DNA from: an uncultured Pseudomonadota bacterium
GTDB lineage: Bacteria > SAR324 > NAC60-12
Direction: 5' to 3'
NCBI GenBank assembly: GCA_964344035.1
Contig: CAYFLK010000011.1
Location: 339 to 64,338, forward strand
Length of the DNA stretch: 64,000 nucleotides
Both the position numbers and the translations under genes were made by a program. Below, piece after piece: positions 11,100 to 55,279 of this stretch (the first letter of the stretch is position 1; each line of letters starts with the position of its first letter). The notes under the pieces were generated by a model. The model was not told where the DNA came from, ran no database searches, and saw nothing but the letters and a program-made list of their open reading frames with translations.

Positions 11100-11250
11100 G
11101 GAGGCAAGAATATCAATTATTATAAAATATTAAATTACAATTATTTCAATATTTTATATAAATTATTATTGAAATGGTGAAAGATATGTGTTTGTATGCG
11201 GTAAAATGCGGTAAAAAAATATTTCACCTGCCGATCCCCTGAGGAGAAAA
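11100..11250. promoter_or_regulatory. strongly AT-rich region upstream of the FecR/lipoprotein operon
   Basis: The sequence reads attattataaaatattaaattacaattatttcaatattttatataaattattattgaaatgg. This is a sharp compositional break from the GC-rich flanks. It is a likely promoter or nucleoid-protein-binding region. Confidence 0.4.
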
Positions 11251-11304: not shown

Positions 11305-11905
11305 TTAGGACCCTTTTTCAATCAGGCTGAGCAGGTCTTCAAAGGGCTGCGCGCCCACCAGTCCGTACCCACCGCAGATGAAGGTGGGGATGCCGGTCAC
11401 CCCGAGTTCCCGGGCCTCCGCCCAATCCCGGTCCACCACCTCGGCATAACTTGCGTTTTGAAAAACATCGCGCGCTTCCTCGGCGGGCAATCCGCATTCT
11501 TCAACGATGGACAGCAACACATCCAACTTGGCAAGGTTTGCTCCATCGACAAAATACGCCCGGTAGAGCTCCTGGTTAAACTTGTCTGAAAGGGGAGTGG
11601 TTTCCGCCCACTTGGCCAGTTCCTGTGCCTTGCGGCTGTTGTAGGTCATGTTTCGCCCGGGATTGAACGGAAGTTCTTCCACCCGGGTCAGGGCTTTCAT
11701 GCGCTGCGCGCCAGCTTTGAAGTCTATCCCGGTCCCCCGGAAAAGGTCTTCCAGGCTGCGTCCTTCCTCCGGAGTGTCAGGATGCAGTGGAAAGTAGCGC
11801 CAGCGCACCTCCACGGGGTGTTTTTTTTTCAAGCGTTCGACACGACCCGTGACGAGGTAACACCACGGTCAGACAAAATCCGTAAAGATTTCGAGGATCG
11901 GCATA
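11305..11905 (-). CDS. DsbA/FrnE-like thiol:disulfide oxidoreductase, candidate selenoprotein (in-frame TGA at the first Cys of the CxxC motif)
   Basis: The ORF track begins at MKKKHPVEVRW. The frame continues upstream as ATG(11905) MPILEIFTDFV-TGA-PWCYLVTGRVERL-KKKHPVEVRW. The TGA (11872-11870) occupies exactly the position of the N-terminal Cys of the conserved DSBA-like motif (F/V)CPWCY. An 8-bp stem-loop, CCGUGGUG..CGUCACGG, starts immediately 3' of the UGA. Confidence 0.6.
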
Positions 11906-12130
11906 TCATTGTTCTTGTTAATGTTTTCAACATATTTATGGCGCGGCGCCTAAATCATGGGACACTATAGCAAAATGCGAAAGCAAAATCATGAGACAAA
12001 CGGCCAATTCCACTGATGGCGACGCCCATTACTGCGGCAAGAAAAATTGTAAGGAATCATAGCTTTGCAGCGAAAAACAAAGAACATGCAGACATGTTCG
12101 GCAGCAGCGGGCTAATCCGCGGAAAAGCGC

Positions 12131-13225
12131 GTGAAGGGACAAATGAAACAGGAATACCATTTCTCAATCCGCGGCACGCGGTTTCTTGACCACGAAGCGA
12201 AGGCCGTTAGACCTTTACCGGACTGGGCGGAACCGCCTGGAAAGCTGGTGGAATTCTACAAAATGATGGTGCTCACACGCACCTTCGACCAGAAGGCTGT
12301 TGCCCTGCAGCGGACCGGTCAGCTGGGCACCTATGCCTCGTCACTCGGCCAGGAAGCGCTTGGGGTGGCGATCGGTTTCGCGATGAAGGACACAGATGTA
12401 TTTGCTCCCAACTACCGCGACCACGCGGCGCAAATCATCCGCGGTGTATCCATCACCGAACTGCTGCTCTTTTGGGGAGGAGACGAACGCGGAAGCGCCA
12501 CAACAAAAGCCAGGGAGGATCTGCCCATCTGCGTCCCGGTAGCCACACAGTGCACACATGCCGCCGGAGTGGCGGGGGCAATCAAAATCAGGGGAGTAAA
12601 ACGGGCGGTTGTCACAACCTGCGGAGACGGCGCCACGTCCCGGGGCGATTTCCTGGAATCGATCAACCTGGCAGGGGCCTGGAAACTGCCGCTGGTCTTT
12701 GTCGTCAACAACAACCAGTGGGCCATCTCCGTACCCCGCGGCATCCAAAGCAGCGCGGAAACGCTGGCGCAAAAAGCCATCGGCGCAGGCATACCCGGAG
12801 AGCAGGTGGACGGCAACGATGTTATTGCGCTGTATGAGGCATTGCGCGAAGCGCTGCAGAGAGCATACGCGGGCAAAGGCGCATCACTGATCGAGGCCCT
12901 TACCTACCGCCTGGGCGATCACACCACCGCTGACGATGCCGCCCGCTATCGCCCGGCTGAGGAACTCAACCGAGCATGGGAACGTGAACCGCTGAAACGC
13001 CTGCAAACATATCTTCATTCACGGGGCGCGTGGGACGAGGAGCAGGAAAAAGCGCTGCAAGATGAATGTCAGGCGCGGGTGCAGGCAAGCGTCGACGAAT
13101 ACCTGGCAACTGAACCCGAAGCGGCCACCGCAATTTTTGGCTCGCTGCACGAAAACCTCCCGCACGCGCTTGAGGAACAGTATGAAAAGCTGGTCCGGAA
13201 ATCCGGTCGGATTGGAGATGCATGA
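12131..13225 (+). CDS. 2-oxo acid dehydrogenase (pyruvate/acetoin/branched-chain type) E1 component alpha subunit, TPP-dependent
   Basis: 364 aa. TPP-binding region GDGATSRGDFLESINLAGAWKLPLVFVVNNNQWAIS. Followed by E1 beta and E2 genes. Confidence 0.8.
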   Translation: MKGQMKQEYHFSIRGTRFLDHEAKAVRPLPDWAEPPGKLVEFYKMMVLTRTFDQKAVALQRTGQLGTYASSLGQEALGVAIGFAMKDTDVFAPNYRDHAAQIIRGVSITELLLFWGGDERGSATTKAREDLPICVPVATQCTHAAGVAGAIKIRGVKRAVVTTCGDGATSRGDFLESINLAGAWKLPLVFVVNNNQWAISVPRGIQSSAETLAQKAIGAGIPGEQVDGNDVIALYEALREALQRAYAGKGASLIEALTYRLGDHTTADDAARYRPAEELNRAWEREPLKRLQTYLHSRGAWDEEQEKALQDECQARVQASVDEYLATEPEAATAIFGSLHENLPHALEEQYEKLVRKSGRIGDA

Positions 13226-13405
13226 GAGTTTTTACTTGCTATTGTATCGAAGGCCTTAGGTGTGCGTTCATCCCCTCACCCCGCCCCTCTCCCGGAGGAA
13301 AGGGGGATAAGAATCAGCACTTACCGGAAGAGGAGGAGTTACAATTTCGCTTTGCGTTGATATTGAAGTGAAATAGGATCTACGGAATCGAAGCATGAGG
13401 AAGCT

Positions 13406-14389
13406 ATGCTGGAGATGACCATGGTCGAAGCAATCAACCTCGCTTTACATCATGAAATGCGGGTTGACGAAAACGTGGTGGTGCTTGGTGAAGACGTGGG
13501 AATCAACGGCGGGGTTTTTCGCGCGACTGTTGGACTGTACGAAAAATTCGGTTACAAACGGGTGATGGACACCCCGCTCGCGGAAACCCTGATCGCCGGG
13601 CTGAGTGTCGGCATGGCGACCCAGGGGCTGCGCCCGGTGGCGGAAATCCAGTTCATGGGTTTCATCTATGCTACCATGGAGCACATGATCAGCCATGCGT
13701 CGCGCATGCGCAACCGCACCCGTGGGAGGCTTGCCTGCCCGATGGTGCTGCGTGCGCCTTACGGTGGCGGCATCCACGCGCCAGAACACCACTCGGAAAG
13801 CACCGAAGCCATGTTTGCCCATATTCCGGGGCTGCGCGTGGTCATCCCCAGTTCTCCGGCACGTGCTTACGGACTTTTGCTGGCGGCCATTCGCGACCCA
13901 GACCCGGTGGTTTTTCTTGAACCCAAACGAATCTACCGCGCAGTCAGCCAGTCCGTCGAAGACAGCGGCGAGGCACTGCCGATGGATCTGTGTTTCACAC
14001 TGCGCGAAGGCCGCGACCTGACACTGGTCGCCTGGGGGGCCATGATCCCGGAGGCAGTGGCGGCCGCTGATAAACTGGCGGAACAAGGCATCGACGTGGA
14101 AATAATTGACGTTGCCACCATTAAGCCTTTGGACATGGAGACCATCGTCCTGTCCGTTGCTAAAACCGGGCACTGCGTGATAGTGCACGAAGCCGCGCGG
14201 AGTTACGGCCCCGGCGCTGAAATCGCAGCGCAACTGGCCGAACGGTCTCTGCTGGATCTGCAGGCGCCGGTCGCCCGCGTGACCGGATACGACACGATCA
14301 TGCCGTATCCACGCCTGGAGCATCTTTACATGCCCGGCAAGGACGATATCTTGGAAGCCTGTCTGAATGCCCTCAATTTTGCGGGCTGA
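13406..14389 (+). CDS. 2-oxo acid dehydrogenase E1 component beta subunit (transketolase-like)
   Basis: 327 aa. Motifs VVVLGEDVG..GGVFRAT, EIQFMGF, and a C-terminal transketolase domain. Confidence 0.8.
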   Translation: MLEMTMVEAINLALHHEMRVDENVVVLGEDVGINGGVFRATVGLYEKFGYKRVMDTPLAETLIAGLSVGMATQGLRPVAEIQFMGFIYATMEHMISHASRMRNRTRGRLACPMVLRAPYGGGIHAPEHHSESTEAMFAHIPGLRVVIPSSPARAYGLLLAAIRDPDPVVFLEPKRIYRAVSQSVEDSGEALPMDLCFTLREGRDLTLVAWGAMIPEAVAAADKLAEQGIDVEIIDVATIKPLDMETIVLSVAKTGHCVIVHEAARSYGPGAEIAAQLAERSLLDLQAPVARVTGYDTIMPYPRLEHLYMPGKDDILEACLNALNFAG

Positions 14390-14411
14390 TGAACTTTATG
14401 CAGGAGTTGCC

Positions 14412-15530
14412 ATGAAATATTTCAAACTTCCGGACCTGGGCGAAGGACTGCAGGAAGCGGAAATCGTTGAATGGCATGTGCGGGAAGGTGACACAGTCAA
14501 AACTGACCAACTGCTGGTTTCAGTGGAAACCGCCAAGGCGATTGTGCAGGTCCCATCTCCAAGAGATGGAACAGTTGTCCGTTTGTATGGCAAAGCGGGT
14601 GACATGCTCCACATCGGGGAACCGCTTGTGGAGTTTGCCGGACAGGAAGACGAGGATGCTGGCACGGTGGTCGGAGCCATAGAACAAGCAGAGAAAAAAC
14701 ACCCTGAAGACCATTTCATCATCGGCGCCCCGGAAAGCGGGAAACGCCGGCAGACAAAGGCCACCCCGGCGGTGCGCGCATTGGCGAGGAAACTAATGCT
14801 TGAGCTGGATGCCGTCACCCCTTCGGGAAAAGACGGCCTGATAACCCGGGAGGATGTCGAACAGGCAGCGAAACAGGTGACGGAAAGCGGTGACACGGAG
14901 CCACTGCGCAGCGTGCGCCGGACGATGGCCCGCAACATGGCCCGCGCACATGCGGAAGTCGCGGCGGTCTCACTGTATGAGGATGCGGACATCGAAGCCT
15001 GGGAACATAACGCAGACCCGACGATCAGGCTTGTACACGCTATCGCGTACGCCTGCACTTGCGAACCATCCCTGAACGTATGGTTTGACGTACAGCGCCT
15101 CGCCCGGCGGATGCAGGAAAAGGTGGATGTAGGGATAGCGGTTGATACCGAGGATGGACTGTTTGTGCCCGTGCTGCGCGATGTCGCAAACCGCACGCTC
15201 CAGGACCTCAGGGAAGGACTCAACCGGATGCGCGGGGACGTGGAAAAACGGACCATTCCTCCGGAAGAGATGCTGAACCCCAGCATCACGCTTTCAAATT
15301 TCGGCACCATGTCCGGACGTTACGCAAACACGGTCGTTGTCCCCCCAACAGTAGCAATCATCGGCGCGGGAGTCATCCGCGATCAGGTGGTGGCCGTTAA
15401 CCGCCAGCCCGTGGTGCATCGCATCCTGCCCCTTTCTCTGACCTTCGATCACAGGGTTGTCACCGGAGGCGAAGCCGCGCGCTTCATGGCGGCGATGATC
15501 GAGGACGTCGTCCGCTCCAGCATTGAGTGA
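14412..15530 (+). CDS. dihydrolipoamide acyltransferase (E2) of 2-oxo acid dehydrogenase complex
   Basis: Start taken at ATG 14412 (MKYFKLPDLGEGLQEAEIVEW, a lipoyl domain with the target Lys in VETAKA). Then a peripheral-subunit-binding domain (ATPAVRALARKL). Then a catalytic domain with DHRVVTGGEAA. No E3 gene follows. Confidence 0.8.
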   Translation: MKYFKLPDLGEGLQEAEIVEWHVREGDTVKTDQLLVSVETAKAIVQVPSPRDGTVVRLYGKAGDMLHIGEPLVEFAGQEDEDAGTVVGAIEQAEKKHPEDHFIIGAPESGKRRQTKATPAVRALARKLMLELDAVTPSGKDGLITREDVEQAAKQVTESGDTEPLRSVRRTMARNMARAHAEVAAVSLYEDADIEAWEHNADPTIRLVHAIAYACTCEPSLNVWFDVQRLARRMQEKVDVGIAVDTEDGLFVPVLRDVANRTLQDLREGLNRMRGDVEKRTIPPEEMLNPSITLSNFGTMSGRYANTVVVPPTVAIIGAGVIRDQVVAVNRQPVVHRILPLSLTFDHRVVTGGEAARFMAAMIEDVVRSSIE

Positions 15531-39199: not shown

Positions 39200-39208
39200 G
39201 GAATTTCA

Positions 39209-39577
39209 ATGGAAACCCCTGCGGTCTCCGAACAAGGGTTCGCGGAAACCCGCGAACCCATGCGGAAACCTAAAGCGTTTGCCATCCTCGTTTCAACTTT
39301 CGCCCTGCTATGGGTCTTCGCGGTGTATGCCGGGCCCTGGCTGGCGGAACGGACCCCGGTGATGAAAGAAATCGTCCAGGTTGTCGAGGAACGGGATATC
39401 AACGCAAACGCTTATTTTTATAGCGAGATTGAAGCTTCCTACGACGGCGAAAATTATCTCAGGGAATCAATGGATCTAACCAGTCAAGAAAGGGGAAAAG
39501 GAGGATTTTTCTTTTTCTCCGGGGTTGCGATCTGCGTACTGATACTCTGGTTCGGGTTTCGCCATCTGCCGATGTGA
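39209..39577 (+). CDS. small membrane protein, two TM helices
   Basis: 122 aa. Two hydrophobic segments (AFAILVSTFALLWVFAVYAG and FFFFSGVAICVLILWFGF). Directly downstream of the transporter gene. Confidence 0.45.
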   Translation: METPAVSEQGFAETREPMRKPKAFAILVSTFALLWVFAVYAGPWLAERTPVMKEIVQVVEERDINANAYFYSEIEASYDGENYLRESMDLTSQERGKGGFFFFSGVAICVLILWFGFRHLPM

Positions 39578-39655
39578 ACACGAAATCTAATTCAACCTTT
39601 CACAAAACCCGGAAAAGCGCGCGGCGTTTCTCCGGGTTTTTCATTTCTGCACCGG

Positions 39656-40237
39656 ATGACTTCCATTGAAGAAAAACAGGAGCAGATCCTGGCCCACGAA
39701 CAGGGATTTGCCCGCCGGCTGGCGTCTGAGCTGATAGTAAAACCGGAATTGAGCCTGTGGATGATACTGATTCCCATCTTCTTCGTGTTTTTTTTCTTCA
39801 GGCTTAACAAGGTGAAAACGGGACGGGAGGAGTTTGTCCGGAATTTCATGATCACACGCCGCAACACTCTCGAGGAAACATATGACGCCATCCGCGAAGA
39901 GCGTAAACCGAATTTGGGCAAACTATGTGAAATCACCGATGCGCCCGCGGAAACTCACCCGGTATACCGGGACTGGGTCAAAGTCCTTTCCGCACACTAT
40001 CTTCGGCTTATCCAGTCCGGGGGTTCCGACTTTGAGGAAATGGTGAAAGCAGCTTACAAGTCTCGCAAAAGTTACTTGCTGTTCCTCAACCGCTTGAACC
40101 AGGCGGAAAAAACCTTCAACCGCGTGCTCAGCCAGCACATCAAGGACGCGGATGAAGGAGTCGGCGAGGTGATCAGGGAAATGGAAAAACACAGTGAAAA
40201 GCTGCGCAGGGACGATGCCGAACGCCTTTTCCATTGA
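39656..40237 (+). CDS. hypothetical membrane-anchored protein
   Basis: 193 aa. One transmembrane segment (LWMILIPIFFVFFFF), then a charged helical domain. No recognisable domain. Confidence 0.45.
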   Translation: MTSIEEKQEQILAHEQGFARRLASELIVKPELSLWMILIPIFFVFFFFRLNKVKTGREEFVRNFMITRRNTLEETYDAIREERKPNLGKLCEITDAPAETHPVYRDWVKVLSAHYLRLIQSGGSDFEEMVKAAYKSRKSYLLFLNRLNQAEKTFNRVLSQHIKDADEGVGEVIREMEKHSEKLRRDDAERLFH

Positions 40238-40713
40238 ATCCGGCAGCTGGAAAAATTGAATCCTCGCTCTGTTGCAAAAAAGGCATTGAAATATTTGAAT
40301 ATCATTTTATGATGGTTTAATTAAGTAGATTTACGGATACATTTCCTGCCGGGAATCTGTAGGATTAGATCTGAATGAGAAGAACAAGTCCATGCTTCCC
40401 GGTTATAAAGAGGGATTTCAGGGACAATGAACTTCAGCTGTCGCTTGTGGTTGTCGTCTCCTGCCGCATCACTACGGAAAATCGTCGGCAATCTTCGATT
40501 CCTTCAAACATATCGCCCGGTGAAACGGAACCCCGTATTCCGACGCCTGAGTTCATTCGCTCGGTCGATGTTCCGTGAGTAATATAATTATATATGTATA
40601 TTCACATAAGAAAATATTTGTGATATCGTAAGGACTCTGCTATAAAAAGCACCCAAATCAGATTCAGGGATTAGAAACAAGCAGGTGGACGGACCCAGCA
40701 TGCGAGAGAAGAG

Positions 40714-42803: not shown

Positions 42804-44045
42804 ATGGAAGTGGCAGAACAAAGCGGAACCGAAGCTGAAGCGAAAACGCAGGAACAGGACGATAAGTTCCTTAACCCAACACCTATGCTGGATGAACTGG
42901 AGGAAGGCCCATGGCCAAGCTTCATCACAGGGCTCAAGGAACTTGCCGAACGTACAAAGAAACCGATGCTTCGCGGGGTGATGGACCAGCTCGAATATTC
43001 TTACCAGACCAGAATGGGATACTGGAAAGGCGGACTGGTTACCGTGGAGGGTTATGGGGGAGGGATAATCGCCCGTTATTCCATGGTCAAAGACAAGATC
43101 CCGGAAGCCTCTGAGTTTCACACTTTTCGTGTGCAGGCGTCTCCGGGGCTGGTCTACAACACCAAGGCGCTGCGCAAACTCTGCGACATCTGGGAGGAAC
43201 ATGGATCCGGACTGATTGCATTGCACGGACAAACCGGGGACGTGATGCTTCAGGGCATCAAGGACACCGAGACCCAGGCGTGTTTTGACGAAATCAACCA
43301 GGCAGGCTGGGACATGGGCGGCGCGGGCGCTGGAATGCGTACCGGCGTTTCCTGCATCGGCCAGGCCCGCTGTGAACAGGCCTGTTACGACACTCTCAAA
43401 ATGCATGAGCGTGTGATGAAGGAATATGTAAGCGATGTCCACCGCCCGGAATTCAACTACAAGTTCAAGTTCAAGTTCTCCGGATGTCCAAACGATTGCA
43501 CGAACGCGATTTTTCGGTCAGATTGCGCGGTGATCGGAATGTGGCGCGATTCCATCCAGATTGACAAACAAGCCGCAAAAGCCTGGATTGAACAGAAAGG
43601 AATGGACAATCTGGTCAACAACGTTATCAGCCGTTGTCCCACCAAAGCGATAACTCTTAAGGACGGTGAACTCGAGATAGACAACAAAAATTGTGTACGC
43701 TGCATGCACTGCCTGAATGTCATGCCCAAAGCCCTATCTCCCGGGAAAGAACGGGGAATTGCGGTGCTCCTTGGGGGGAAAAACATCCTCAAGGTAGGCG
43801 CCATGGGCGGAACAATGGTAGTGCCCTTCATGAAGATGGAAACCGACGAAGACATCGAGGAATTCATCGAGCTGATGGACAACGTGATGGAGTGGTGGGA
43901 TGACAACGGTCTTGACCACGAACGGCTCGGAGAAACGCTTGAACGGGTCGGCCTGAAACATTTTCTTGATGCAATGGACTTGGAGCCGACTGCCGACATG
44001 GTCGCCCATCCGCGGACAAACCCCTATTTCAAAGCCGCCTACTAA
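42804..44045 (+). CDS. dsrA: dissimilatory sulfite reductase alpha subunit
   Basis: 413 aa. Sirohaem-[4Fe-4S] Cys clusters (CIGQARCEQAC) and a ferredoxin insert (CPNDCTNAI, CVRCMHC). Followed by dsrB. Confidence 0.9.
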   Translation: MEVAEQSGTEAEAKTQEQDDKFLNPTPMLDELEEGPWPSFITGLKELAERTKKPMLRGVMDQLEYSYQTRMGYWKGGLVTVEGYGGGIIARYSMVKDKIPEASEFHTFRVQASPGLVYNTKALRKLCDIWEEHGSGLIALHGQTGDVMLQGIKDTETQACFDEINQAGWDMGGAGAGMRTGVSCIGQARCEQACYDTLKMHERVMKEYVSDVHRPEFNYKFKFKFSGCPNDCTNAIFRSDCAVIGMWRDSIQIDKQAAKAWIEQKGMDNLVNNVISRCPTKAITLKDGELEIDNKNCVRCMHCLNVMPKALSPGKERGIAVLLGGKNILKVGAMGGTMVVPFMKMETDEDIEEFIELMDNVMEWWDDNGLDHERLGETLERVGLKHFLDAMDLEPTADMVAHPRTNPYFKAAY

Positions 44046-44076
44046 TTAACCATCGACCCAAATTCAGGAGAGTACC

Positions 44077-45153
44077 ATGGCCATTGAACGAGCATGGAAA
44101 ACGGTTGAATCCGGACCGTATGACTACCAGGAAGGCCTTCATCCGGTTATCGTAAAGAACTACGGGAAATGGGCCTATCATGAGGAACCGAAACCCGGGG
44201 TCTTGAAACATGTTGCTGAAAACGGAGACGTTCTCTGGACGGTCCGTGCCGGCACGCCCCGTCAGGATTCCGTGGATTTCGTGCGCAGGCTCTGCGATGT
44301 CGCGGACAAGTACGCAGACGGCTTTCTGCGTTTCACCGTGCGCAGCAACGTAGAATACATGACCCCCGATGAAGACAAAGTGCAGCTGCTGATTGATGAG
44401 CTGGAAGGAATGGGACTGCCGGTGGGAGGGACCGGTCCTTCGGTCTCCCAGGTCGCCCACACCCAGGGATGGCTGCATTGCGACATACCCGCTTCGGACG
44501 CATCCGGAGTGGTGAAATCAATGATGGACGCGCTCATAGACGATTTCAAATCCATGCGCATGCCTAACCGGGTGAAACTGGTCACCCAGTGCTGTGAACT
44601 TAACTGCGGTGGGCAGGGCGACATATCGATCATTGTCAAACACACCCGCCCGCCGCGCATCAACCACGAAATCCTCGGAGAAGTCTGTGAACTTCCCAAG
44701 GCCGTCGCCCGCTGTCCGGTGGCCGCGATTCGCCCGACGGTTGTCAACGGCAAGCGTTCGCTGATGGTTGACGAAGAGAAATGCATGTACTGCGGCGCCT
44801 GCTTCGGGGCCTGCCCGGCAATGGAAATCAATCATCCGGAACATTCTAAATTTGCCGTCTGGGTTGGCGGAAAGAACTCGAACGCGCGCAGCAGACCTTC
44901 CCTCGGATACCTGGTGGCCCACAACCTGCCCAACAATCCTCCGCGCTGGCCCGAGATCAACGATGTGGTCAAACGCATCCTTGAAGCCTACAGAAACGGC
45001 GGCCGCCACTGGGAACGCCTGGGTGAGTGGATCGACCGCATCGGCTGGAAGAACTTTTTTGCGGAAACCGGTCTGACCTTCGACGAGGACATGATCGACA
45101 ATTACCGTCACGCGCGGACGACCTTCAACCAGTCCGCACATGTTCGATTCTAA
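44077..45153 (+). CDS. dsrB: dissimilatory sulfite reductase beta subunit
   Basis: 358 aa. Motifs CCELNCGGQGD and CPVAAI, CMYCGACFGACP are the DsrB cluster and ferredoxin motifs. Confidence 0.9.
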   Translation: MAIERAWKTVESGPYDYQEGLHPVIVKNYGKWAYHEEPKPGVLKHVAENGDVLWTVRAGTPRQDSVDFVRRLCDVADKYADGFLRFTVRSNVEYMTPDEDKVQLLIDELEGMGLPVGGTGPSVSQVAHTQGWLHCDIPASDASGVVKSMMDALIDDFKSMRMPNRVKLVTQCCELNCGGQGDISIIVKHTRPPRINHEILGEVCELPKAVARCPVAAIRPTVVNGKRSLMVDEEKCMYCGACFGACPAMEINHPEHSKFAVWVGGKNSNARSRPSLGYLVAHNLPNNPPRWPEINDVVKRILEAYRNGGRHWERLGEWIDRIGWKNFFAETGLTFDEDMIDNYRHARTTFNQSAHVRF

Positions 45154-45168
45154 CGGAAGGAGCAGGTC

Positions 45169-46965
45169 ATGACCACCAAAACCATTGAATCCAATCCGAT
45201 CCTCGATTTCGCGGAGGCTTACGAGTTCCCTGAGTTTAATGAAGAAAAAGGAACAAAAAAAGTTGTCGCTTTCGGAGATCAGAGCCACAAATGCCCGGTT
45301 TACCTCCGGCAGGAGCCGCCTTGCAACGAAGGATGTCCGGCGGGGAACGACATCCGCGCCTGGCTGACGATCGTCCAGCAGACGGAATTGAAGAAGCGCG
45401 GCTGGGAGGAATCCTATGAACTGCTGTGGCGGGAAGTTAGCAAAACCACCCCCCTGCCCGCGGTCTGCGGACGTGTCTGTCCACATCCCTGTGAACCGGT
45501 ATGCAACCGTAATGAAAAAGAAGGAGCGGTGAACATCAATGCCTACGAACGCTGGATCGGGGATTATGCCATCCAGCACGGGCTTGATCATGAGAAGCTT
45601 ACCAATGAGGTGAAACCCCAGAAAATAGCGGTCGTCGGGTCCGGACCGGCCGGGTTGAGCTGCGCGTTTCAAATGGCGCGGCGTGGGTACCCGGTGACCA
45701 TCTTCGAATCATTCGATAAACCCGGAGGCATGCTGCGTTACGGCATTCCCCCCTACCGCCTGCCGCGCGACATCATCGATGCGGAGGTGGCTGCGATTGA
45801 AAGAATGGGGGTGGATATCCGTTGCAACACTGTCATTGGCGAGGACATCAGCCTCGATGATTTGAAAGCCGAATATGATGCAGTCTTCCTCGGAATCGGC
45901 GCCCACAAGGGTATTTCACTGGGTTTCGACGGAGAAGACGCATCGAATGTGATGAGCGGAGTCGAGTTTCTTAATCGGGTCAATGCCGGCGAGATGATGG
46001 AAGTGGGAAATAATGTGGTGATCATCGGAGGGGGCGATACGGCGATTGACGCCGCCCGCGTTTCCCTCCGGCTCAGTGCATTGGACGGTGGGCAGGCAGT
46101 TTTCGACGCCGCCCGGGTCTCACGGCGGCTGGGTGCGAAAGTGACCATTCTATACCGGCGCACCCGCGAAGAGATGCCGGCCATCGACAGGGAGGTAGAC
46201 GAGGCCCTCGAAGAAAACATTGATATCCAGTACCTCTCCGCGCCGGTAGCTATCCGCACTGAAAACGGCAAGGCGGTGGCGGTTAAATGCCTGCGCATGG
46301 AACTGGGGGAGCCTGATGAAAGCTGCCGCCGCCGCCCGGTCCCGATTGAAGGATCGGAATTCGAGGTTGAATGCAGCACCCTCATCCCGGCTGTCAGCCA
46401 AGAACCTGACTGGCGGGACGCCGATAGATACGTCAGCGGCAAAAACTGGCTGAATCCCGGAGCTGACGGGACGGTTGAAGAGGGGGTCTATGCGGGTGGG
46501 GATGCCATCGAGCTGGGATTGGCGTGTATTGCCATCGGCAATGGCCGCAAGGCCGCTGAACAGATGCATGCCAAGTTTTCCGGAGAACAACCGCCCCGGA
46601 CGCAATGGGTGAAAACAGTCCCTCATGAGAAGCTGCGCCTGGAACATTATGCGTCGTGTGAACGCAACAAACGCGGATACCTTTCTCCCGAAGAAAGGTT
46701 GGCGGGTGGACTTGATCTCGAAATCGACAAGGGTATCAGCGAAGAACAGTTCAGGGAAGAAGCCGGACGCTGCATGAGCTGCGGCCTGTGTTTCGAGTGC
46801 TATGAGTGCATGATGTTCTGTCCGCAGACTGCGATTACCAGGTTTACGGAGAATCCTGTCGGCGAAGTGATGTACACCTATTACAACAAATGTGTTGGAT
46901 GTCATCTCTGCGCGGTAGTATGTCCCTGTAATTATATCCAGATGGGTATGTCCGATGAACTCTGA
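45169..46965 (+). CDS. dsrL: DsrL, NAD(P)H:acceptor oxidoreductase (glutamate-synthase small-subunit-like, with C-terminal ferredoxin domain)
   Basis: 598 aa. N-terminal Fe-S Cys motif (CPVYL..CNEGCPAGN). FAD motif KIAVVGSGPAGLSCA. NAD(P) motif VVIIGGGDTAIDAARV. C-terminal CMSCGLCFECYEC..CPQ / CVGCHLCAVVCPC. Confidence 0.8.
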   Translation: MTTKTIESNPILDFAEAYEFPEFNEEKGTKKVVAFGDQSHKCPVYLRQEPPCNEGCPAGNDIRAWLTIVQQTELKKRGWEESYELLWREVSKTTPLPAVCGRVCPHPCEPVCNRNEKEGAVNINAYERWIGDYAIQHGLDHEKLTNEVKPQKIAVVGSGPAGLSCAFQMARRGYPVTIFESFDKPGGMLRYGIPPYRLPRDIIDAEVAAIERMGVDIRCNTVIGEDISLDDLKAEYDAVFLGIGAHKGISLGFDGEDASNVMSGVEFLNRVNAGEMMEVGNNVVIIGGGDTAIDAARVSLRLSALDGGQAVFDAARVSRRLGAKVTILYRRTREEMPAIDREVDEALEENIDIQYLSAPVAIRTENGKAVAVKCLRMELGEPDESCRRRPVPIEGSEFEVECSTLIPAVSQEPDWRDADRYVSGKNWLNPGADGTVEEGVYAGGDAIELGLACIAIGNGRKAAEQMHAKFSGEQPPRTQWVKTVPHEKLRLEHYASCERNKRGYLSPEERLAGGLDLEIDKGISEEQFREEAGRCMSCGLCFECYECMMFCPQTAITRFTENPVGEVMYTYYNKCVGCHLCAVVCPCNYIQMGMSDEL

Positions 46966-46985
46966 TCCCCTTTCAGGAGACTCAC

Positions 46986-47351
46986 ATGTATGAAAAACTG
47001 ATCGGCATGGTCGAAGATGCAGTTGATCTTTCCCGCCGCTGGGCCCAGTCAGGCTGGAAGACACGCTTTGGCGAGCGTGGGGTGGAAGCCTGTTCTCTCT
47101 CAGAGGCCCTGGACCTTCCACCCAATTTTGTCTATCGTGAGGAAGCCGTCGATTACTGGACCCAGGTGCAGATGATTGGCAGCGATGCGGCCGAATCCGG
47201 GAAAAAAGCGATTGAGGCCTTAAAAAACGGGGACCTTAAGCGTGCCGAGGATTCTGTTTATTTCTCAATGTACATTGAAAAACCCTATGCGCCCAACAGC
47301 AAAACCTGGAAGCCGGTGTACGAGGCAGTCAAACAGGAGATGAACGGATAG
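46986..47351 (+). CDS. hypothetical protein embedded in dsr cluster
   Basis: 121 aa and soluble, with no recognisable motif. RBS GGAGA upstream. It occupies the dsrL-tusA gap. Confidence 0.5.
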   Translation: MYEKLIGMVEDAVDLSRRWAQSGWKTRFGERGVEACSLSEALDLPPNFVYREEAVDYWTQVQMIGSDAAESGKKAIEALKNGDLKRAEDSVYFSMYIEKPYAPNSKTWKPVYEAVKQEMNG

Positions 47352-47464
47352 GTCGATAGTTAAAAAGACAAAAACCTCTTTGTTCCATAAGCAGGTGAAG
47401 TCCGTTTTATGGATCGAACCGCCTGGGTGTTCCCAACTATTTAACCAAAAAAAGGAGACTATAT

Positions 47465-47704
47465 ATGAGTGAGGAAATCAAATTTGACCAGGAACTCGAC
47501 TGCAGCGGACTTTCCTGTCCCCTGCCGGTCCTGAAAACCAAAAAAGCAATTAATACCCTCAATTCCGGCGATGTGCTTAAGGTGATTTCCACCGATCCCG
47601 GATCGAACAAGGATATGCCTTCATGGAGCAAACGCACCGGCAACCCGATCCTCAAGACCGAGGATCAGTCGGGGGCCTTCATTTTTTACATCCAGCGCAA
47701 ATGA
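47465..47704 (+). CDS. tusA: TusA-family sulfurtransferase
   Basis: 79 aa. LDCSGLSCPLPVLKTKKAI has the CPxP persulfide-carrying motif. RBS AAGGAGA upstream. Confidence 0.85.
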   Translation: MSEEIKFDQELDCSGLSCPLPVLKTKKAINTLNSGDVLKVISTDPGSNKDMPSWSKRTGNPILKTEDQSGAFIFYIQRK

Positions 47705-47728
47705 GCACCTGACCTCACTGGGACAAGC

Positions 47729-48088
47729 ATGAAATTTGGAATACTTATCAAAGAAGGCCCCTACACACACCAGGCATCCGACAGCGCCTTCCGCTTTGTC
47801 AGGACCGCCCTTGAAAAGGGACACACGATCGAGGGGGTGTTCTTGTACAACGACGGCGTTAACAATGCAACCAAACTGATGGACCCTCCCCAGGACGACC
47901 GACACCTGTCAAATCTCTGGTCCGAACTCGGTGGTGAATTGGGAGACGAAATCATGGTCTGTATTGCCGCCGCAAAACGACGGGGGATTGTGGAGGAGGT
48001 GATCCCGAAAAACACATCCATCACAGGTTTGGGGGAGTTGACCGACTTGACCATCCGTGCTGATCGCCTGGTCACTTTTGGAGATTGA
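47729..48088 (+). CDS. dsrE: DsrE (sulfur relay protein, DsrEFH complex)
   Basis: 119 aa. MKFGILIKEGPYTHQAS.. is the DsrE/TusD fold. The conserved active Cys lies in IMVCIAAAKRRG. Confidence 0.85.
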   Translation: MKFGILIKEGPYTHQASDSAFRFVRTALEKGHTIEGVFLYNDGVNNATKLMDPPQDDRHLSNLWSELGGELGDEIMVCIAAAKRRGIVEEVIPKNTSITGLGELTDLTIRADRLVTFGD

Positions 48089-48092
48089 TGCC

Positions 48093-48482
48093 ATGGAAGA
48101 GTACGATTACGACGATGACGAAATAGTAAAGAAGATCATGCATGTCATGCGGCGTGCCCCGCACGGCACAATCTATACCTATGAAGGATTGGAAATGATC
48201 CTCATCATGGCATCCTACGATCAGGACATCACCGTCGTCTTCATTGACGACGGGGTGTATGCGCTGAAAAAGGACCAGGACACCAGCGCTATCGGCATCA
48301 AAGGATTTGCGAAAACATTCCTGGCTCTGGACGGGTACGATGTTGAGAAGCTTTATGTCGATCAGCAGTCACTGGAGGAGCGGGGACTGACGGAAGATGA
48401 CCTTGTGGTGCCGGTAGAAGTTATGAGTGCCGAAGAAATCGGCAGATTGATGACCGAACAGGACGAGGTGATCCATCACTGA
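48093..48482 (+). CDS. dsrF: DsrF (sulfur relay protein)
   Basis: ATG at 48093 follows GGAGA. 129 aa, TusC/DsrF-like. The ORF track extends it to 48057, overlapping dsrE. Confidence 0.75.
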   Translation: MEEYDYDDDEIVKKIMHVMRRAPHGTIYTYEGLEMILIMASYDQDITVVFIDDGVYALKKDQDTSAIGIKGFAKTFLALDGYDVEKLYVDQQSLEERGLTEDDLVVPVEVMSAEEIGRLMTEQDEVIHH

Positions 48483-48556
48483 AGTTCCATCAGTTAATCT
48501 GAAGCAAGTCGCTTCCGTGACCTGTTTGTTCTAAAACCCGTATTGGATGGATTCCG

Positions 48557-48850
48557 ATGCTTCACACCATCAATAAATCCCCTTTTACATCAAATACATT
48601 TGAAACATGTCTTCGTTTTCTGCGGTCCGGGGATCCGGTATTGTTCTATGAAGACGGCGTCTACACCGTGCAGACTTCCCACAAGTTTTCCGGGAGGATA
48701 GCAGAGCTGCAGGCATCCAACCCGGTATTCGCCCTGAAGCCCGACCTCGAAGCTAGGGGGATTGCTGACACTGTTGAGGGAGTAACCCTGATTGACTACG
48801 GAGGTTTTGTTGATCTCGTCGAAGAACACACAGTCAACAGCTGGCTGTGA
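48557..48850 (+). CDS. dsrH: DsrH (sulfur relay protein)
   Basis: 97 aa. Conserved N-terminal Cys in TCLRFLRSGD. TusB/DsrH size. Confidence 0.8.
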   Translation: MLHTINKSPFTSNTFETCLRFLRSGDPVLFYEDGVYTVQTSHKFSGRIAELQASNPVFALKPDLEARGIADTVEGVTLIDYGGFVDLVEEHTVNSWL

Positions 48851-48902
48851 GGAGGCATAGAAAACGCTGATAATTATTTCCGGCTTTTGGCTGGGAGAGA
48901 AA

Positions 48903-49529
48903 ATGAGTGACGCACTGAATTACCTGCTAAAAGCCCGTCCCGAGGCAATGGGCTCTTATTTTGCCTTCCTCAAACAGGCGGGTACGCATCTCGATCAACG
49001 ATCACGTGACTTGATTTCGGTGATCACCAAGGTGGCCGTGCAGACCGAATCAGGTTTTCGGCAATATCTCTCACGCGCGTTGCGCAACGGCTGTACGTCT
49101 GATGAAGTGTTGGATGCGCTGCTGATGGCGTTTCCGGTGCTCGGGCTGGCAAAAATCACCTGGGCAGTGGAGATAATTCTTGAAATGGACATACCGGAGT
49201 TTCGTCAGGAAGGGCTTGACGCAAAACCGGAATGGCGCTCAGTCAGCAGCCTCGAAGAAATTCCGTTCGGGGAGGCGGCCTATTACGAGGTAGATAACCG
49301 GCAGGTGTTCGTTTTTCGTACTGAGGATGAAATTCGTGTTTATGACAGCCGCTGTCCGCACCAGGTAACCAACATCCCCCATCTCGCCCTGGAGGGCACA
49401 CGTTTGACCTGCCCCAAGCACCAGTGGGCATTTGACATTCAAAGCGGTGAATGCATAGACAAGGGGCGGCTTCCACTGCGGAGTTTTGAATGCAGGGAGG
49501 AAAACGGGCAGCTGCAAGCATACTGGTAA
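48903..49529 (+). CDS. fusion protein: AhpD-like carboxymuconolactone-decarboxylase-family domain + Rieske [2Fe-2S] domain
   Basis: 208 aa. The N-terminal ~100 aa are an AhpD/CMD-family helical fold. The C-terminus CPHQVTN...(17 aa)...CPKHQW is the Rieske CxH..CxxH motif. Confidence 0.6.
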   Translation: MSDALNYLLKARPEAMGSYFAFLKQAGTHLDQRSRDLISVITKVAVQTESGFRQYLSRALRNGCTSDEVLDALLMAFPVLGLAKITWAVEIILEMDIPEFRQEGLDAKPEWRSVSSLEEIPFGEAAYYEVDNRQVFVFRTEDEIRVYDSRCPHQVTNIPHLALEGTRLTCPKHQWAFDIQSGECIDKGRLPLRSFECREENGQLQAYW

Positions 49530-49596
49530 CCCTGTCCATCTGCAATTTGCTGACGCTGCAATACAGCTCGGGCAGCGCATGAAGGAATGTAAGTTA

Positions 49597-50976
49597 ATGG
49601 AACAGCTTCCGGTTTTTATGAATCTGCGCGGCCAATCCTGTCTGGTTGCCGGGGAAGAAAATAAAGCCTACCACAAAATCCTCCTCCTGCTAAAAGCAGA
49701 AGCCAGGGTTTATCTGCTCACCCAATCGCCCTGCCGGAGAATACGCGAATTGTTTCATCAAAACCGTCTGGTTTCCGTGGATGAACCACTTGAGAAACTT
49801 GAACTGAGCCGTTTTCGACTGGTGATCTGCGCTTCAGAAAATTCAGCACTCAACGAGTTGCTGGCAAGAAGGGCGATGGAACTGAACATCCCGGTCAACG
49901 TGGTGGATCAGCCTGATCTCTGCACCTTCACCATTCCCTCGATCGTGGACCGTTCACCGCTGATCGTCGCGGTTTCTTCCAGTGGCAAATCCCCGACCCT
50001 TTCCAAGTTCGTGCGCAGGAAGATCGAAGCTCTGCTGCCCCACACCTATGGTCCACTGACCGAGATGCTGGGGAATTTCCGCAAACAGACCCGGAACCGC
50101 ACAAGCGACTATTCTGAAAAAAAACGTTTTTGGGAACGCCTGCTATCCGGGCCTCTTGTCGATCTCTTCCTTTCCGGGAAGGAACAGACCGCGCGGGATG
50201 TGATGCAGCATGAACTAGAACAAGCATCAAAACCTGAAAAACGTGGACAGGTCGTGCTTGCCGGCGCAGGTCCGGGCGACCCGGAGTTGCTTACCCTGCG
50301 CGCTCTGCGACACATTCAAAACGCGGACGTGATTGTCTATGACCGCCTGGTTTCAAGTCCGGTACTTGACTATGCAAATCCGGACGCCGAAATGGTGTAT
50401 GCGGGCAAGAAGACCGGGGACCACTACCTTTCGCAACAGGATATCAACCGCAAACTGATACGGCTGGCACAGGAAGGCAAATCCGTGGTTCGTCTCAAGG
50501 GAGGAGATCCATTTATTTTCGGACGCGGAGGGGAGGAACTGGAGGAGTTGATGGATGCCGGGATCGATTTCCAGGTCATCCCCGGCATCACTGCCGCCGG
50601 GGGATGCTGCGCCTATGCCGGGATCCCCCTCACTCACCGCGATTTTGCCCAGTCAGTCGTGTTTGTCACTGCCCACGGCAGGGATGAAGAACTTGAGTTG
50701 AACTGGGAAAGCCTGACCCAGCCGAACCAGACCTTGGTTTTTTACATGGGCCTTGCCAATGCCGAACTGGTAAGCCGCGGTCTGATCACACACGGACTTC
50801 CCGCCGACACCCCGGCCGCACTTGTGCAGAACGGGACCACCTTCAACCAGAAAGTTGCCGTCGGCAATATTGAAACGCTTCCGCGACTGATCCAAGAGCA
50901 GGGTTTCCAGCGTCCGACACTGATCATAGTAGGACATACCGTGACCCTGCATGAGAAGCTGCAGTGGTACAACTGA
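49597..50976 (+). CDS. cysG: siroheme synthase (CysG-like: precorrin-2 dehydrogenase/ferrochelatase + uroporphyrinogen-III C-methyltransferase)
   Basis: Start ATG 49597 (MEQLPVFMNLRGQSCLVAGEENKA). N-terminal NAD Rossmann. C-terminal SUMT motif VVLAGAGPGDPELLTLRA..DVIVYDRLV. Confidence 0.8.
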   Translation: MEQLPVFMNLRGQSCLVAGEENKAYHKILLLLKAEARVYLLTQSPCRRIRELFHQNRLVSVDEPLEKLELSRFRLVICASENSALNELLARRAMELNIPVNVVDQPDLCTFTIPSIVDRSPLIVAVSSSGKSPTLSKFVRRKIEALLPHTYGPLTEMLGNFRKQTRNRTSDYSEKKRFWERLLSGPLVDLFLSGKEQTARDVMQHELEQASKPEKRGQVVLAGAGPGDPELLTLRALRHIQNADVIVYDRLVSSPVLDYANPDAEMVYAGKKTGDHYLSQQDINRKLIRLAQEGKSVVRLKGGDPFIFGRGGEELEELMDAGIDFQVIPGITAAGGCCAYAGIPLTHRDFAQSVVFVTAHGRDEELELNWESLTQPNQTLVFYMGLANAELVSRGLITHGLPADTPAALVQNGTTFNQKVAVGNIETLPRLIQEQGFQRPTLIIVGHTVTLHEKLQWYN

Positions 50977-51002
50977 ACTACGTCTAATAACGGACCCGGG
51001 AC

Positions 51003-51500
51003 ATGAGCGAAATTCACCACTTCCTCAGGGAAAACCGGGAAGCAGTGCTGGATCAATGGCTCACCAGCGCCTTCAAAATGTTCCCCGAACAGTCCAGGCT
51101 GCTTATGGTCAGCAATCCGGACCCGTTCACCAGCCCCATCCGTCATGCGCTCAGCAAGGGTATGGCGCAACTGCTGGACCGGTTTTGTGTAGAAGAACCC
51201 ATAACCGGGGGAAAAGAGCTTGAGGAACTCGGGCGGCTCCTTGCGGTTCAGGAGATGCCGCCCTCCCAGTCCCTTCCCTTCATTTTTGAATTGAAAACCG
51301 TGGTCCGGAAACTTGCAGGGAAAAATAATAAACGCTCCGGATTCTCCGACAGGGACTGGGATGAATTTCAGGACCGGCTTGAGCAGGTGCTTTTCCATCT
51401 GTTCGATTGTTATCTGAAACATCGAGAAAAGATATACCAACTGAAAGCCGAAGAAATGAAGCAACGGACATACATGCTGCTTAGGAGGGCCACCCAATGA
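51003..51500 (+). CDS. dsrT: DsrT-like protein (RsbRD N-terminal-like domain)
   Basis: 165 aa, helical. Its position immediately before dsrMKJOP matches dsrT in other dsr loci. FLRENREAVLDQWL is a globin-sensor/RsbR N-like start. Its stop overlaps the dsrM start (ATGA). Confidence 0.5.
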   Translation: MSEIHHFLRENREAVLDQWLTSAFKMFPEQSRLLMVSNPDPFTSPIRHALSKGMAQLLDRFCVEEPITGGKELEELGRLLAVQEMPPSQSLPFIFELKTVVRKLAGKNNKRSGFSDRDWDEFQDRLEQVLFHLFDCYLKHREKIYQLKAEEMKQRTYMLLRRATQ

Positions 51501-55272: not shown

Positions 55273-55279
55273 GGGAGCC

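Follow-up and report, generated by a model that had tools for sequence, protein, structure and literature searches.

What becomes of an in-frame TGA that stands where a thiol-disulfide oxidoreductase should carry its catalytic cysteine? The question is raised by a gene on the minus strand of a 64-kb stretch of DNA (hereafter the window), which reads ATG-CCG-ATC-CTC-GAA-ATC-TTT-ACG-GAT-TTT-GTC-TGA-CCG-TGG-TGT-TAC, i.e., M P I L E I F T D F V * P W C Y, and past the TGA runs on in the same frame into a mechanically called ORF starting MKKKHP. Read through, the coding sequence covers 11305..11904 (minus strand) and comprises 199 residues plus a TAA stop codon at 11307..11305, with the TGA (11869..11871, minus strand) as codon 12. 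The first-pass annotation had proposed the frame MPILEIFTDFV-TGA from an ATG at 11905; the reading is exact, but the ATG lies at 11904..11902. It is the sole standard in-frame start after the upstream stop at 11952..11950, and the start codons of homologues are found at the same place or two to four codons earlier. No obvious Shine-Dalgarno sequence was seen ahead of it. Our reading, to which we assign a probability of roughly 0.9, is that the locus encodes a cytoplasmic thiol/selenol-disulfide oxidoreductase of 199 residues, belonging to the FrnE branch of the DsbA family, in which the nucleophile is selenocysteine (U12-P-W-C15) and the UGA is recoded by means of a hairpin in the mRNA.

The assignment to the family is clear from the protein. 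With the TGA read as Cys, residues 4–195 match Pfam DSBA (PF01323) at profile positions 2–190 of 191 (E = 5.6e-36). Among solved structures FrnE of Deinococcus radiodurans comes closest (DR_0659; PDB 5cnw and 5cp1, matched over residues 4–195 with E = 8.6e-24; further entries are 5co3, 5coh, 5e59 and 5xwh). FrnE is a disulfide reductase/isomerase that belongs to the DsbA family and works in the cytoplasm. Its redox motif is 22-CPWC-25, and Cys22 is the residue that the UGA aligns with; the whole U-P-W-C motif (TGA CCG TGG TGT, 11860..11871, minus strand) aligns also with the CPWC of the Cys-form homologues P0003, P0004, P0034 and P0069, alongside 119 further Cys forms. This redox motif is invariant across all homologues. 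Such an alignment was the check that the first-pass annotation had named for its claim that the UGA replaces the first Cys of a CxxC motif, and it places the codon precisely at that nucleophilic Cys, with Cys15 as the resolving residue. A T-G-I-P-T loop (residues 170–174; 11383..11397, minus strand), in which the conserved P173 faces the active site, is the counterpart of the cis-Pro loop known from thioredoxin-fold oxidoreductases, and P173 would adopt the cis conformation. The region aligns to GITGVPFF of FrnE, and G168, T170, G171, P173 and T174 are invariant in our protein alignment (A1). The protein ends in LSLIEKGS at residue 199, and the only Cys residues beyond the motif are C134 and C178.

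Within the family, the N-terminal beta1-CPWC architecture, the lack of a signal peptide and the conserved GxTGxP loop are shared with FrnE, which differs in having Cys instead of Sec and in being some 60 residues longer. An active site as early as residue 12 leaves no space for a signal peptide, and the protein shows the hallmark of the cytoplasmic FrnE subfamily (cd03024-type), i.e., an N-terminal CP(W/F)C-type centre in a DsbA-like domain lacking a signal peptide. The C-terminal CxxxxC tail of FrnE is absent from the 199-residue protein, but this tail is found in many, not all, members of the subfamily (PMC8945050), so that its absence does not speak against membership. In FrnE itself the tail (239-CxxxxC-244) has been implicated in active-site regeneration (PMC8945050), and the partner that recycles the window protein must therefore differ from that of FrnE. 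With the periplasmic DsbA of E. coli type the protein shares the thioredoxin fold with an inserted helical domain and a CxxC-type centre where helix 1 begins. However, it does not belong to that branch: neither a signal peptide nor a CPHC-type centre was found, the motif being UPWC with no N-terminal extension possible, and periplasmic DsbA structures in the PDB match only the C-terminal ca. 50 residues (E of about 1e-5).

Gene callers and public database entries give a much shorter product. The truncated ORF (11305..11832, minus strand) starts at a TTG at 11832 and gives a protein of 175 aa, MKKKHP..., devoid of the active site; the corresponding NCBI products are N-truncated as well (P0125 with 175 aa and P0001 with 169 aa), as had been foreseen in the first-pass annotation, and many versions that start right after the motif are found in protein databases. 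If this short protein, translated from TTG 11832 or a similar internal start, were the real product, the gene would encode a DsbA fold without a redox centre and the upstream frame would be a coincidence. What speaks for it is that automatic annotation and the database entries report it. However, the 11 upstream codons encode beta-strand 1 of the family followed by the active-site motif, both of which are kept in the protein sequences of about 85 loci; they begin at the position where the full-length Cys homologues start, and the internal start varies among callers (169, 167 and 175 aa) and lies within the first helix of the domain. We consider the short product very improbable.

That the TGA should stand at this position by chance is out of the question. 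Among the 80 best homologues from species-representative genomes (48–63% identity), 79 have TGA at the same codon, and the form occurs in Flavobacteriaceae, Acidobacteriota, Alpha-, Beta- and Gammaproteobacteria, SAR324, Rokubacteria, Methylomirabilota, Planctomycetota, Desulfobacteraceae, Chloroflexia and others. It is present too in metagenomic homologues (L003–L005), in the relatives L209 (85% identical) and L210 (59% identical), and, identically, in four assemblies made independently of one another from separate runs (L001, L002, L006 and L007). A sequencing or assembly error that turned TGC or TGT into TGA is a general possibility for any such codon, and there is a run of nine A (A9, encoding KKK; 11821..11829, minus strand) within the coding sequence about 40 nt downstream, just 3' of the hairpin described below. 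This homopolymer is the same in the independent assembly L001 and is broken up (AAAAAAGAAA) in L209. The four assemblies and the 79 of 80 homologues effectively refute an error; the TGA is neither an error nor a pseudogene lesion. Together with the PF01323 match and the alignment to FrnE, this conservation supports the original proposal of a DsbA/FrnE-like oxidoreductase with UGA in place of the first Cys of CxxC.

If the codon is recoded as selenocysteine, a bacterial SECIS element (bSECIS) should be found next to it. The first-pass annotation had pointed to a stem-loop beginning 1 nt after the UGA. That hairpin, CCGUGGUG-UUACCU-CGUCACGG (11847..11868, minus strand; −9.4 kcal/mol), does exist, but it is not the conserved SECIS, with only 67% of its positions paired and no compensatory changes across 79 Sec-form genes. 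Its loop is placed 8 nt from the UGA and neither of its first two nucleotides is a G, and on these two counts it departs from the constraints of the bSECIS consensus model (PMC13188914). Local folding is also no better than in dinucleotide shuffles (z = −0.4 to +0.2 for 46–62 nt and −1.1 for 76 nt). The supported element overlaps the 3' arm of that hairpin and extends further downstream: CUCGUCAC-GGGUC-GUGUCGAA (11836..11856, minus strand), spanning 13–33 nt after the UGA, with its apical loop GGGUC at 11848..11844. The two pairings are mutually exclusive. Numbered from the U of the UGA, the core consists of U17-A35, C18-G34, G19-C33, a U20.U32 mismatch, C21-G31, A22-U30 and C23-G29.

The evidence for this second hairpin comes from the family. 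Across the 79 Sec-form genes 92.6% of its positions are paired, and compensatory changes occur at three pairs, among them 19-33 (AU to GC in 6 cases, AU to UA in 5 and AU to UG in 2) and 21-31 (UA to CG in 10). None of 500 shuffles matched the covariation score, controls slid along the alignment were paired in only 21–50% of cells, and RNAalifold recovers the hairpin. Synonymous sites are frozen in the Sec forms (Arg CGT in 79/79, Leu CTC in 77/79 and Thr ACC in 74/79), and the stem is paired at 7.41 of 8 positions on average, versus 4.27 of 8 in 119 Cys-form controls. L111, a candidate Sec-to-Cys reversion, retains 6 of the 8 stem pairs. When the window sequence was left out of the training set of a covariance model, the model still found the element as its sole significant match in the 64 kb (11859..11832, 25.8 bits, E = 9e-6; the next match had 11.9 bits), while on 100 Cys-form loci the best score was 22 bits and all the others were at or below 15.7. 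The window carries the “LVTGRVE” variant (G-C at 19-33, U.U at 20-32, loop GGGUC), as opposed to the commonest form, “LSTGRIE”. In Rfam no relevant match was obtained for the whole window at gathering thresholds or for 11600–12000 at E ≤ 10; to our knowledge Rfam holds no general bacterial SECIS model, and this result is uninformative.

The geometry agrees with the published consensus as well. The bSECIS model (PMC13188914, Fig. 2A) has an apical loop of 3–9 nt and an upper stem of 4–16 bp, with a G as the first loop nucleotide, the second or both, the pattern N1-G-[G|U]-N-N2 and a minimum free energy of −7.5 kcal/mol or lower. Here the loop is the 5-nt GGGUC, or a GGU triloop if G24-C28 closes, in which case the upper stem above the U.U mismatch has 4 bp (C21-G31, A22-U30, C23-G29 and G24-C28) instead of 3; three further pairs lie below the mismatch. 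G-G-G-U-C fits N1-G-G-N-N2, with N1 and N2 able to pair, and G25 shows no variation among the 79 family members. The distance from UGA to loop is 20 nt (columns 4–23 of the nucleotide alignment, A2), within the model. The energy is less generous: the isolated hairpin of the window, with its U.U mismatch, has −7.2 kcal/mol, which falls just short of the model threshold and is weaker than the −8.0 of the family consensus; when the hairpin is enforced within 70 nt the fold has −14.0, so that the outcome depends on the span to which the threshold refers.

The paradigm for such elements is the SECIS of E. coli fdhF, a hairpin inside the coding sequence at a fixed short distance after the UGA, with the loop starting at about 20 nt and containing GGUC or G[G/U]. 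The window element resembles it in its position within the gene, in the loop sequence, in the loop start some 20 nt after the UGA and in a break in the regular helix a few pairs beneath the loop. It differs in that the stems have no sequence similarity, a U.U (or G.U) mismatch takes the place of the bulged U, and the window element is shorter and weaker (−7.2 kcal/mol), its binding to SelB being a prediction. The consensus model in PMC13188914 also enters into this comparison.

In free RNA other folds are thermodynamically preferred. The hairpin of the first-pass annotation is one (−9.4 kcal/mol), and a long-range helix specific to the window (−22.7 kcal/mol over 70 nt) is another; when the first 15 nt are kept from pairing, the SECIS pairs are predicted to form at equilibrium with a probability of about 0.007. 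In many family members a different hairpin, formed by columns 3–13 with 19–30 and labelled C, dominates the minimum free energy structure. We rejected it as a selected element: although 90.8% paired, it falls below the shuffle mean, its pair 6-26 is anti-correlated and no covariation was found.

A translating ribosome might also pass the UGA without selenium, by means of a near-cognate tRNA (Trp or Cys) or an alternative code, giving a Cys or Trp protein. The nucleotide after the UGA is a C, a leaky termination context established for E. coli, and selenium is a prediction from the sequence. However, the genetic code is standard, given that TGA terminates 30 of the 43 main ORFs in the window, and a protein with Trp as its catalytic residue would have no activity. 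In addition, a conserved hairpin of bSECIS geometry that follows the UGA in the Sec forms and is missing from the Cys forms speaks against such a scheme, as does the adjacency of homologues to selA-selB-selC. This kind of read-through appears to us highly unlikely.

Genes for selenocysteine decoding adjoin the homologous gene in several genomes. In L051, selA, selB and tRNA(Sec) lie immediately upstream; in L053 and L081 the tRNA-Sec, with or without selB, is adjacent; and on the contig of P0104 a gene with a SelB domain is found 2 kb upstream. The window itself is different in this respect: ARAGORN detected no tRNA whatsoever in the 64 kb, hence no tRNA-Sec, Pfam searches of the 39 large ORFs found no SelA, SelB or SelD, and tblastn with SelA and SelB of L051 gave no match in the window. 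Nor did a crude scan of the window for other ORFs split by a single TGA reveal a convincing second selenoprotein; one candidate, at 39200–40240, turned out to be two adjacent genes. The bacterium also carries an oxidative-type dsr cluster, and the nearest named homologues of DsrB are of mixed origin (Chlorobium, Desulfotalea, Magnetococcales and SAR324 MAGs, at 68–80% identity).

These negative results, together with the comparatively weak hairpin, would fit a fresh relic, in which the UGA once specified Sec, the machinery has since been lost and translation halts after 11 residues. Yet the absence of Sec genes from 64 kb says little, because these genes are normally scattered around the genome, and the 187 codons downstream of the TGA are undamaged, with the score of a complete DSBA domain. 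The close relative L209 is also informative: in the six visible codons upstream of the TGA it differs from the window by only two synonymous changes and one V/I change, and it retains the TGA and the 21-nt hairpin without a single change, although synonymous sites on either side have diverged, a pattern that points to continuing selection in this sub-lineage. We therefore regard a relic as unlikely and retain the selenoenzyme reading, with selABCD and tRNA-Sec presumably located elsewhere in this genome.

By analogy with the bacterial Sec pathway, we infer that Sec is inserted in this organism, the UGA at 11871..11869 being recoded during translation. With the UGA in the ribosomal A site, the hairpin proposed in the first-pass annotation would be melted and the one at 11856..11836 would lie just outside the ribosome, where it could recruit SelB-GTP-Sec-tRNA(Sec), so that Sec would be inserted in place of termination. 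In the enzyme, if the chemistry of FrnE and of the thioredoxin fold is a guide, the selenolate that sits at the N-terminus of helix 1 would attack a substrate disulfide or other oxidised thiol, Cys15 would resolve the mixed selenylsulfide into an intramolecular Se-S bond, and a reductant would then re-reduce this bond; the substrate and the direction of the reaction are likewise assigned by analogy. A bolder proposal, which we hold as doubtful, is that the Sec form is the normal state of a FrnE-like sub-branch across more than 10 phyla, spread horizontally (in some cases as a selA-selB-selC-dsbA(U) cassette), and that its SECIS is also a ribosome-triggered switch. The almost invariant 21-nt SECIS would, on this proposal, point to repeated horizontal spread of the Sec-form gene. 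As for the switch, the free mRNA would sequester the 5' arm of the SECIS in a competing helix, one that takes in the UGA or borders on it (in the family hairpin C, in the window the first-pass hairpin), and the SelB-binding hairpin would form only after the ribosome had melted this helix.

The Sargasso Sea metagenome yielded the first description of DsbA-like selenoproteins with a UxxC motif (“form 1”, PF01323/COG2761; Zhang et al., 2005; PMC1088965). They were later found in genomes such as those of Anaeromyxobacter dehalogenans, Desulfovibrio desulfuricans and Desulfotomaculum reducens (PMC1794560), and are listed as a family in a 2026 review (PMC13188914). The remark in the first-pass annotation that such proteins were already known is thus correct (PMC1088965, PMC1794560), and since the UxxC family (COG2761) has been known since 2005 the gene is a further member of it and not a new kind. 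It has in common with that family the Pfam/COG assignment, Sec in place of the first Cys, widespread Cys-form homologues, a SECIS-type hairpin downstream of the UGA with a small G-containing apical loop, and a truncated mis-annotation; compared on these features, it shows no defining difference. Selenoprotein biology as known is unchanged by the present results. For this genome, they amount to an annotation correction, the public 175-aa product lacking the catalytic centre and the real product most probably being a 199-aa selenoenzyme. Beyond it, the DsbA-like Sec family appears to be systematically mis-called, given the TGA in 79 of the 80 closest homologues, the many N-truncated entries and the lack of any NCBIfam match above the model cut-offs; the near-invariant SECIS and its covariance model would permit the automatic rescue of such genes. 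For the organism, the prediction is that it carries the full Sec-decoding machinery and needs selenium.

The gene under study, a DsbA/FrnE-like oxidoreductase on the minus strand of the window, carries an in-frame TGA. Its codons read ATG (11904..11902) CCG ATC CTC GAA ATC TTT ACG GAT TTT GTC TGA (11871..11869), followed by CCG TGG TGT TAC CTC GTC ACG GGT CGT GTC GAA CGC TTG AAA AAA AAA CAC, which is translated as MPILEIFTDFV-stop-PWCYLVTGRVERLKKKHP... and stays open until the TAA at 11307..11305. This agrees with the first-pass annotation, in which the frame extended upstream of MKKKHP through a TGA; the ATG proposed as start is also present, although at 11904 and not at 11905. The prediction that standard gene callers would shorten such a gene was borne out by the mechanical ORF list (start at TTG 11832, MKKKHP, 175 aa) and by the products found in public collections, of 175 aa (NCBI) and of 169 and 167 aa (ENA/Logan). 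No further in-frame ATG, GTG or TTG occurs before the ATG as far back as the upstream stop (11952..11950), so that the protein begins at MPILEIF; its active-site motif occupies residues 12-15, which leaves no space for a signal peptide.

L001, L002, L006 and L007, four assemblies obtained independently from this population, all have the same TGA. A protein search retrieved ca. 2,800 homologues, mostly of about 200 aa and with CPWC, but a subset was N-truncated, beginning just past the motif, and the DNA of every one of these examined (L003, L004 and L005) contained FSDYV-TGA-PWCY. Scanning species-representative genomes, we found TGA at this codon in 79 of 80 loci (48-63% identity), the single exception (L034) having TGC. 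Represented among these loci are Flavobacteriaceae, Acidobacteriota, Alpha-, Beta- and Gammaproteobacteria, SAR324, Rokubacteria, Methylomirabilota, Planctomycetota, Desulfobacteraceae, Chloroflexia and others. The TGA is likewise kept in L209 and L210, which at 85% and 59% identity stand nearest to the window protein, and the six visible codons upstream of it in L209 differ by one Val/Ile substitution plus two synonymous ones. Since TGA is the stop codon in 30 of the 43 main ORFs of the window, the code is standard. With the TGA shared by assemblies and homologues, a sequencing error, a random nonsense mutation or an alternative code are therefore ruled out for practical purposes.

When the TGA was read as Cys, residues 4-195 matched positions 2-190 (of 191) of the Pfam DSBA profile (PF01323, E = 5.6e-36), i.e., the N-terminal extension completes the domain. 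All NCBIfam models stayed below their cut-offs for this protein. The nearest solved structures were those of FrnE of Deinococcus radiodurans (5cnw, 5cp1 and others, E = 8.6e-24, residues 4-195), together with the putative DsbA oxidoreductase SCO1869 (3gl5). LEIFTDFV-C-PWCY aligns on VDIWSDIA-C-PWCY of FrnE, the active site of which is 22-CxxC-25 (PMC8945050), so that the UGA falls on the first, nucleophilic Cys (Cys22 of FrnE), as had been claimed from the sequence. Among homologues the loop T170-G-I-P173-T does not vary. In FrnE a C-terminal CxxxxC tail regenerates the active site (PMC8945050), whereas the window protein is devoid of such a tail.

To describe the RNA we used a gap-free alignment (A2) of the 60 nt from the UGA in 79 distinct Sec-form genes, with columns counted from its U. 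A SECIS hairpin formed by columns 16/17-23 with 29-35/36 (loop 24-28) was paired in 92.6% of the cells, compared to 21-50% in slid controls. Compensatory changes appeared at three pairs: 19-33, where double changes preserving pairing converted AU to GC (six times), UA (five) and UG (two), 21-31 (UA to CG, ten times) and 16-36 (twice). The covariation score was matched by none of 500 shuffles, and the core of the hairpin was also found by RNAalifold. Synonymous sites inside it are frozen (Arg CGT 79/79, Leu CTC 77/79, Thr ACC 74/79, Ser AGT 61/65) across phyla of very unlike base composition, while codons farther downstream vary freely. The control set consisted of 119 FrnE-like genes of the Cys form, drawn from metagenomes solely by the pattern D[YF]V-C-PWCY[LF]. 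They had 4.27 paired positions of 8, vs. 7.41 in the Sec forms, and with nearly the same peptide their Arg codons were CGC, CGG, AGG and AGA. A covariance model made from the 78 other species, excluding the window, gave a single significant match in the 64 kb, at 11859..11832 (25.8 bits, E about 9e-6; runner-up 11.9 bits), and scored 28 bits in L209 and 30 bits in L210. Over 100 Cys-form loci the best score was 22 bits and the remainder did not exceed 15.7 bits. The best one, L111:1260-1287 (-) (CPWCYLVTPRVEKL), retains 6 of the 8 SECIS stem pairs and is a candidate for a recent Sec-to-Cys conversion, or for a precursor state.

The window copy of the SECIS hairpin, at 11856..11836 (-), is CUCGUCAC-GGGUC-GUGUCGAA, with pairs U-A, C-G, G-C, a U.U mismatch, C-G, A-U and C-G. 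In keeping with the published bacterial SECIS model (PMC13188914), the loop (GGGUC) has 5 nt, carries a G within its first two positions (N1-G-[G/U]-N-N2, N1 and N2 being pairable) and lies 20 nt from the UGA; the energy of the hairpin alone, -7.2 kcal/mol, is marginally short of the -7.5 threshold. Thermodynamic folding of the window sequence does not favour it, as the stem-loop proposed in the first-pass annotation reaches -9.4 kcal/mol. Over 70 nt, a long-range helix peculiar to the window (CACGGG...GUGU with ACAC...CCCGUG) attains -22.7 kcal/mol, compared to -14.0 kcal/mol with the SECIS hairpin enforced, and the SECIS pairs have an equilibrium probability of about 0.007. Neither L008 nor L210 conserves this helix, and the folding of the region overall is no better than that of shuffles. 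The loop of the long-range helix is an A9 homopolymer (KKK) of the coding sequence (11821-11829 (-), 7 nt 3' of the SECIS hairpin), potentially prone to slippage or error, which is the same in the independent assembly L001 and broken up in L209.

The proposed stem-loop (11868..11847 (-), columns 4-11 with 18-25), beginning 1 nt after the UGA, does not hold as the SECIS. In A2 it was paired in 67% of the cells with no compensatory changes, and its loop, which starts without G and at a distance of 8 nt from the UGA, violates two constraints of the bacterial model. Given the mRNA footprint of the ribosome, it would be unwound with the UGA in the A site. Many family members have a more stable alternative, columns 3-13 with 19-30 (90.8% paired). 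Its pairing is under the shuffle mean, pair 6-26 is anti-correlated and mostly mismatched, and there is no covariation, i.e., no sign of selection as such. Most members can form this 11-bp helix (e.g., L010:3030-3057), in which the A of the UGA takes part and which competes for the SECIS 5' arm; it may simply follow from the conserved peptide or may act ahead of the ribosome. Like the first-proposed stem-loop, it uses this arm and sits where the ribosome would melt it, and it is a matter of speculation whether such refolding is of consequence. The hairpin of columns 16/17-36, and not the one first proposed, is the RNA element backed by the family data.

No tRNA was found in the window, no SelA, SelB or SelD among its 39 large ORFs (Pfam), and no match to it by tblastn with one SelA and one SelB. 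In three homologous loci the orthologue is immediately preceded by Sec genes, namely selA-selB-tRNA(Sec) in L051 (24-3600), selB-tRNA(Sec) in L053 (11-1974) and tRNA(Sec) in L081 (68-1282), which lends indirect support to the predicted Sec machinery of the host. These are Burkholderiales-type or uncultured genomes, and having the Sec-form gene immediately behind the machinery is possibly a mobile "Sec trait plus client" cassette. On the JGI contig of the protein homologue P0104, the Sec-form DsbA-like gene is preceded by a SelB winged-helix domain gene (3-785) and a truncated AhpC/TSA gene (2156-2479, 107 aa), the short product of which is possibly a further selenoprotein cut short by the gene caller.

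The gene stands alone in the window: on one side a 2-oxoacid dehydrogenase E1/E2 operon (12131-15530) is transcribed divergently from it, and on the other comes a 308-nt AT-rich spacer followed by a FecR-domain gene. Within this spacer, about 100 nt (11100-11200, ...aataataatttatataaaatattgaaataattgtaatttaatattttataataattgatattc...) are strongly AT-rich in a window of 53% GC and may serve the minus-strand genes downstream as promoter or regulatory region. Neighbors vary among homologous loci, so the context gives no functional clue. The host is a sulfur-metabolising bacterium, as indicated by a large dsr cluster (42804-56443 (+)) with dsrA (42804-44045), dsrB (44077-45153), a dsrL-like NAD(P)-binding Fe-S flavoprotein (45169-46965), an ORF of 121 aa that matches no family (46986-47351), tusA (47465-47704), dsrE/F/H (47729-48850), a sirohaem synthase (49486-50976) and dsrMK(J)OP-like genes (51497-56443), all on the plus strand. 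DsrB is closest to oxidative-type sequences (Chlorobium and Magnetococcales-type, 68-80% identity) and, with dsrEFH and dsrL, points to a putative oxidative-type (reverse) DSR system. Right after dsrH there is an unusual fusion of a carboxymuconolactone-decarboxylase (CMD, AhpD-like) domain and a Rieske [2Fe-2S] domain (48903-49529 (+)). CMD-domain proteins are a known selenoprotein family; this copy has no in-frame TGA.

Sec-containing DsbA-like proteins were, as the first-pass annotation stated, already known. The Sargasso Sea yielded, in 2005, nine sequences of a "DsbA-like protein" family of selenoproteins (COG2761, UxxC), for which SECIS elements were predicted (PMC1088965), in 2006 the family was reported in several genomes (PMC1794560), and a 2026 review lists "DsbA-like protein form 1, PF01323, UxxC", the functions of such proteins being still uncharacterised (PMC13188914). 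By its sequence the locus fits every testable defining feature of the DsbA-like UxxC family, which places it in this already described group as a new member. The in-frame TGA is confirmed and the selenoprotein interpretation, except for the choice of hairpin, is supported; we give a probability of about 90% to a UGA-encoded selenoprotein, in which standard bacterial Sec recoding would yield a cytoplasmic FrnE-type selenol/thiol oxidoreductase. In this sub-branch the Sec form prevails (79/80), and its SECIS is conserved enough that a small covariance model could rescue the mis-called genes.
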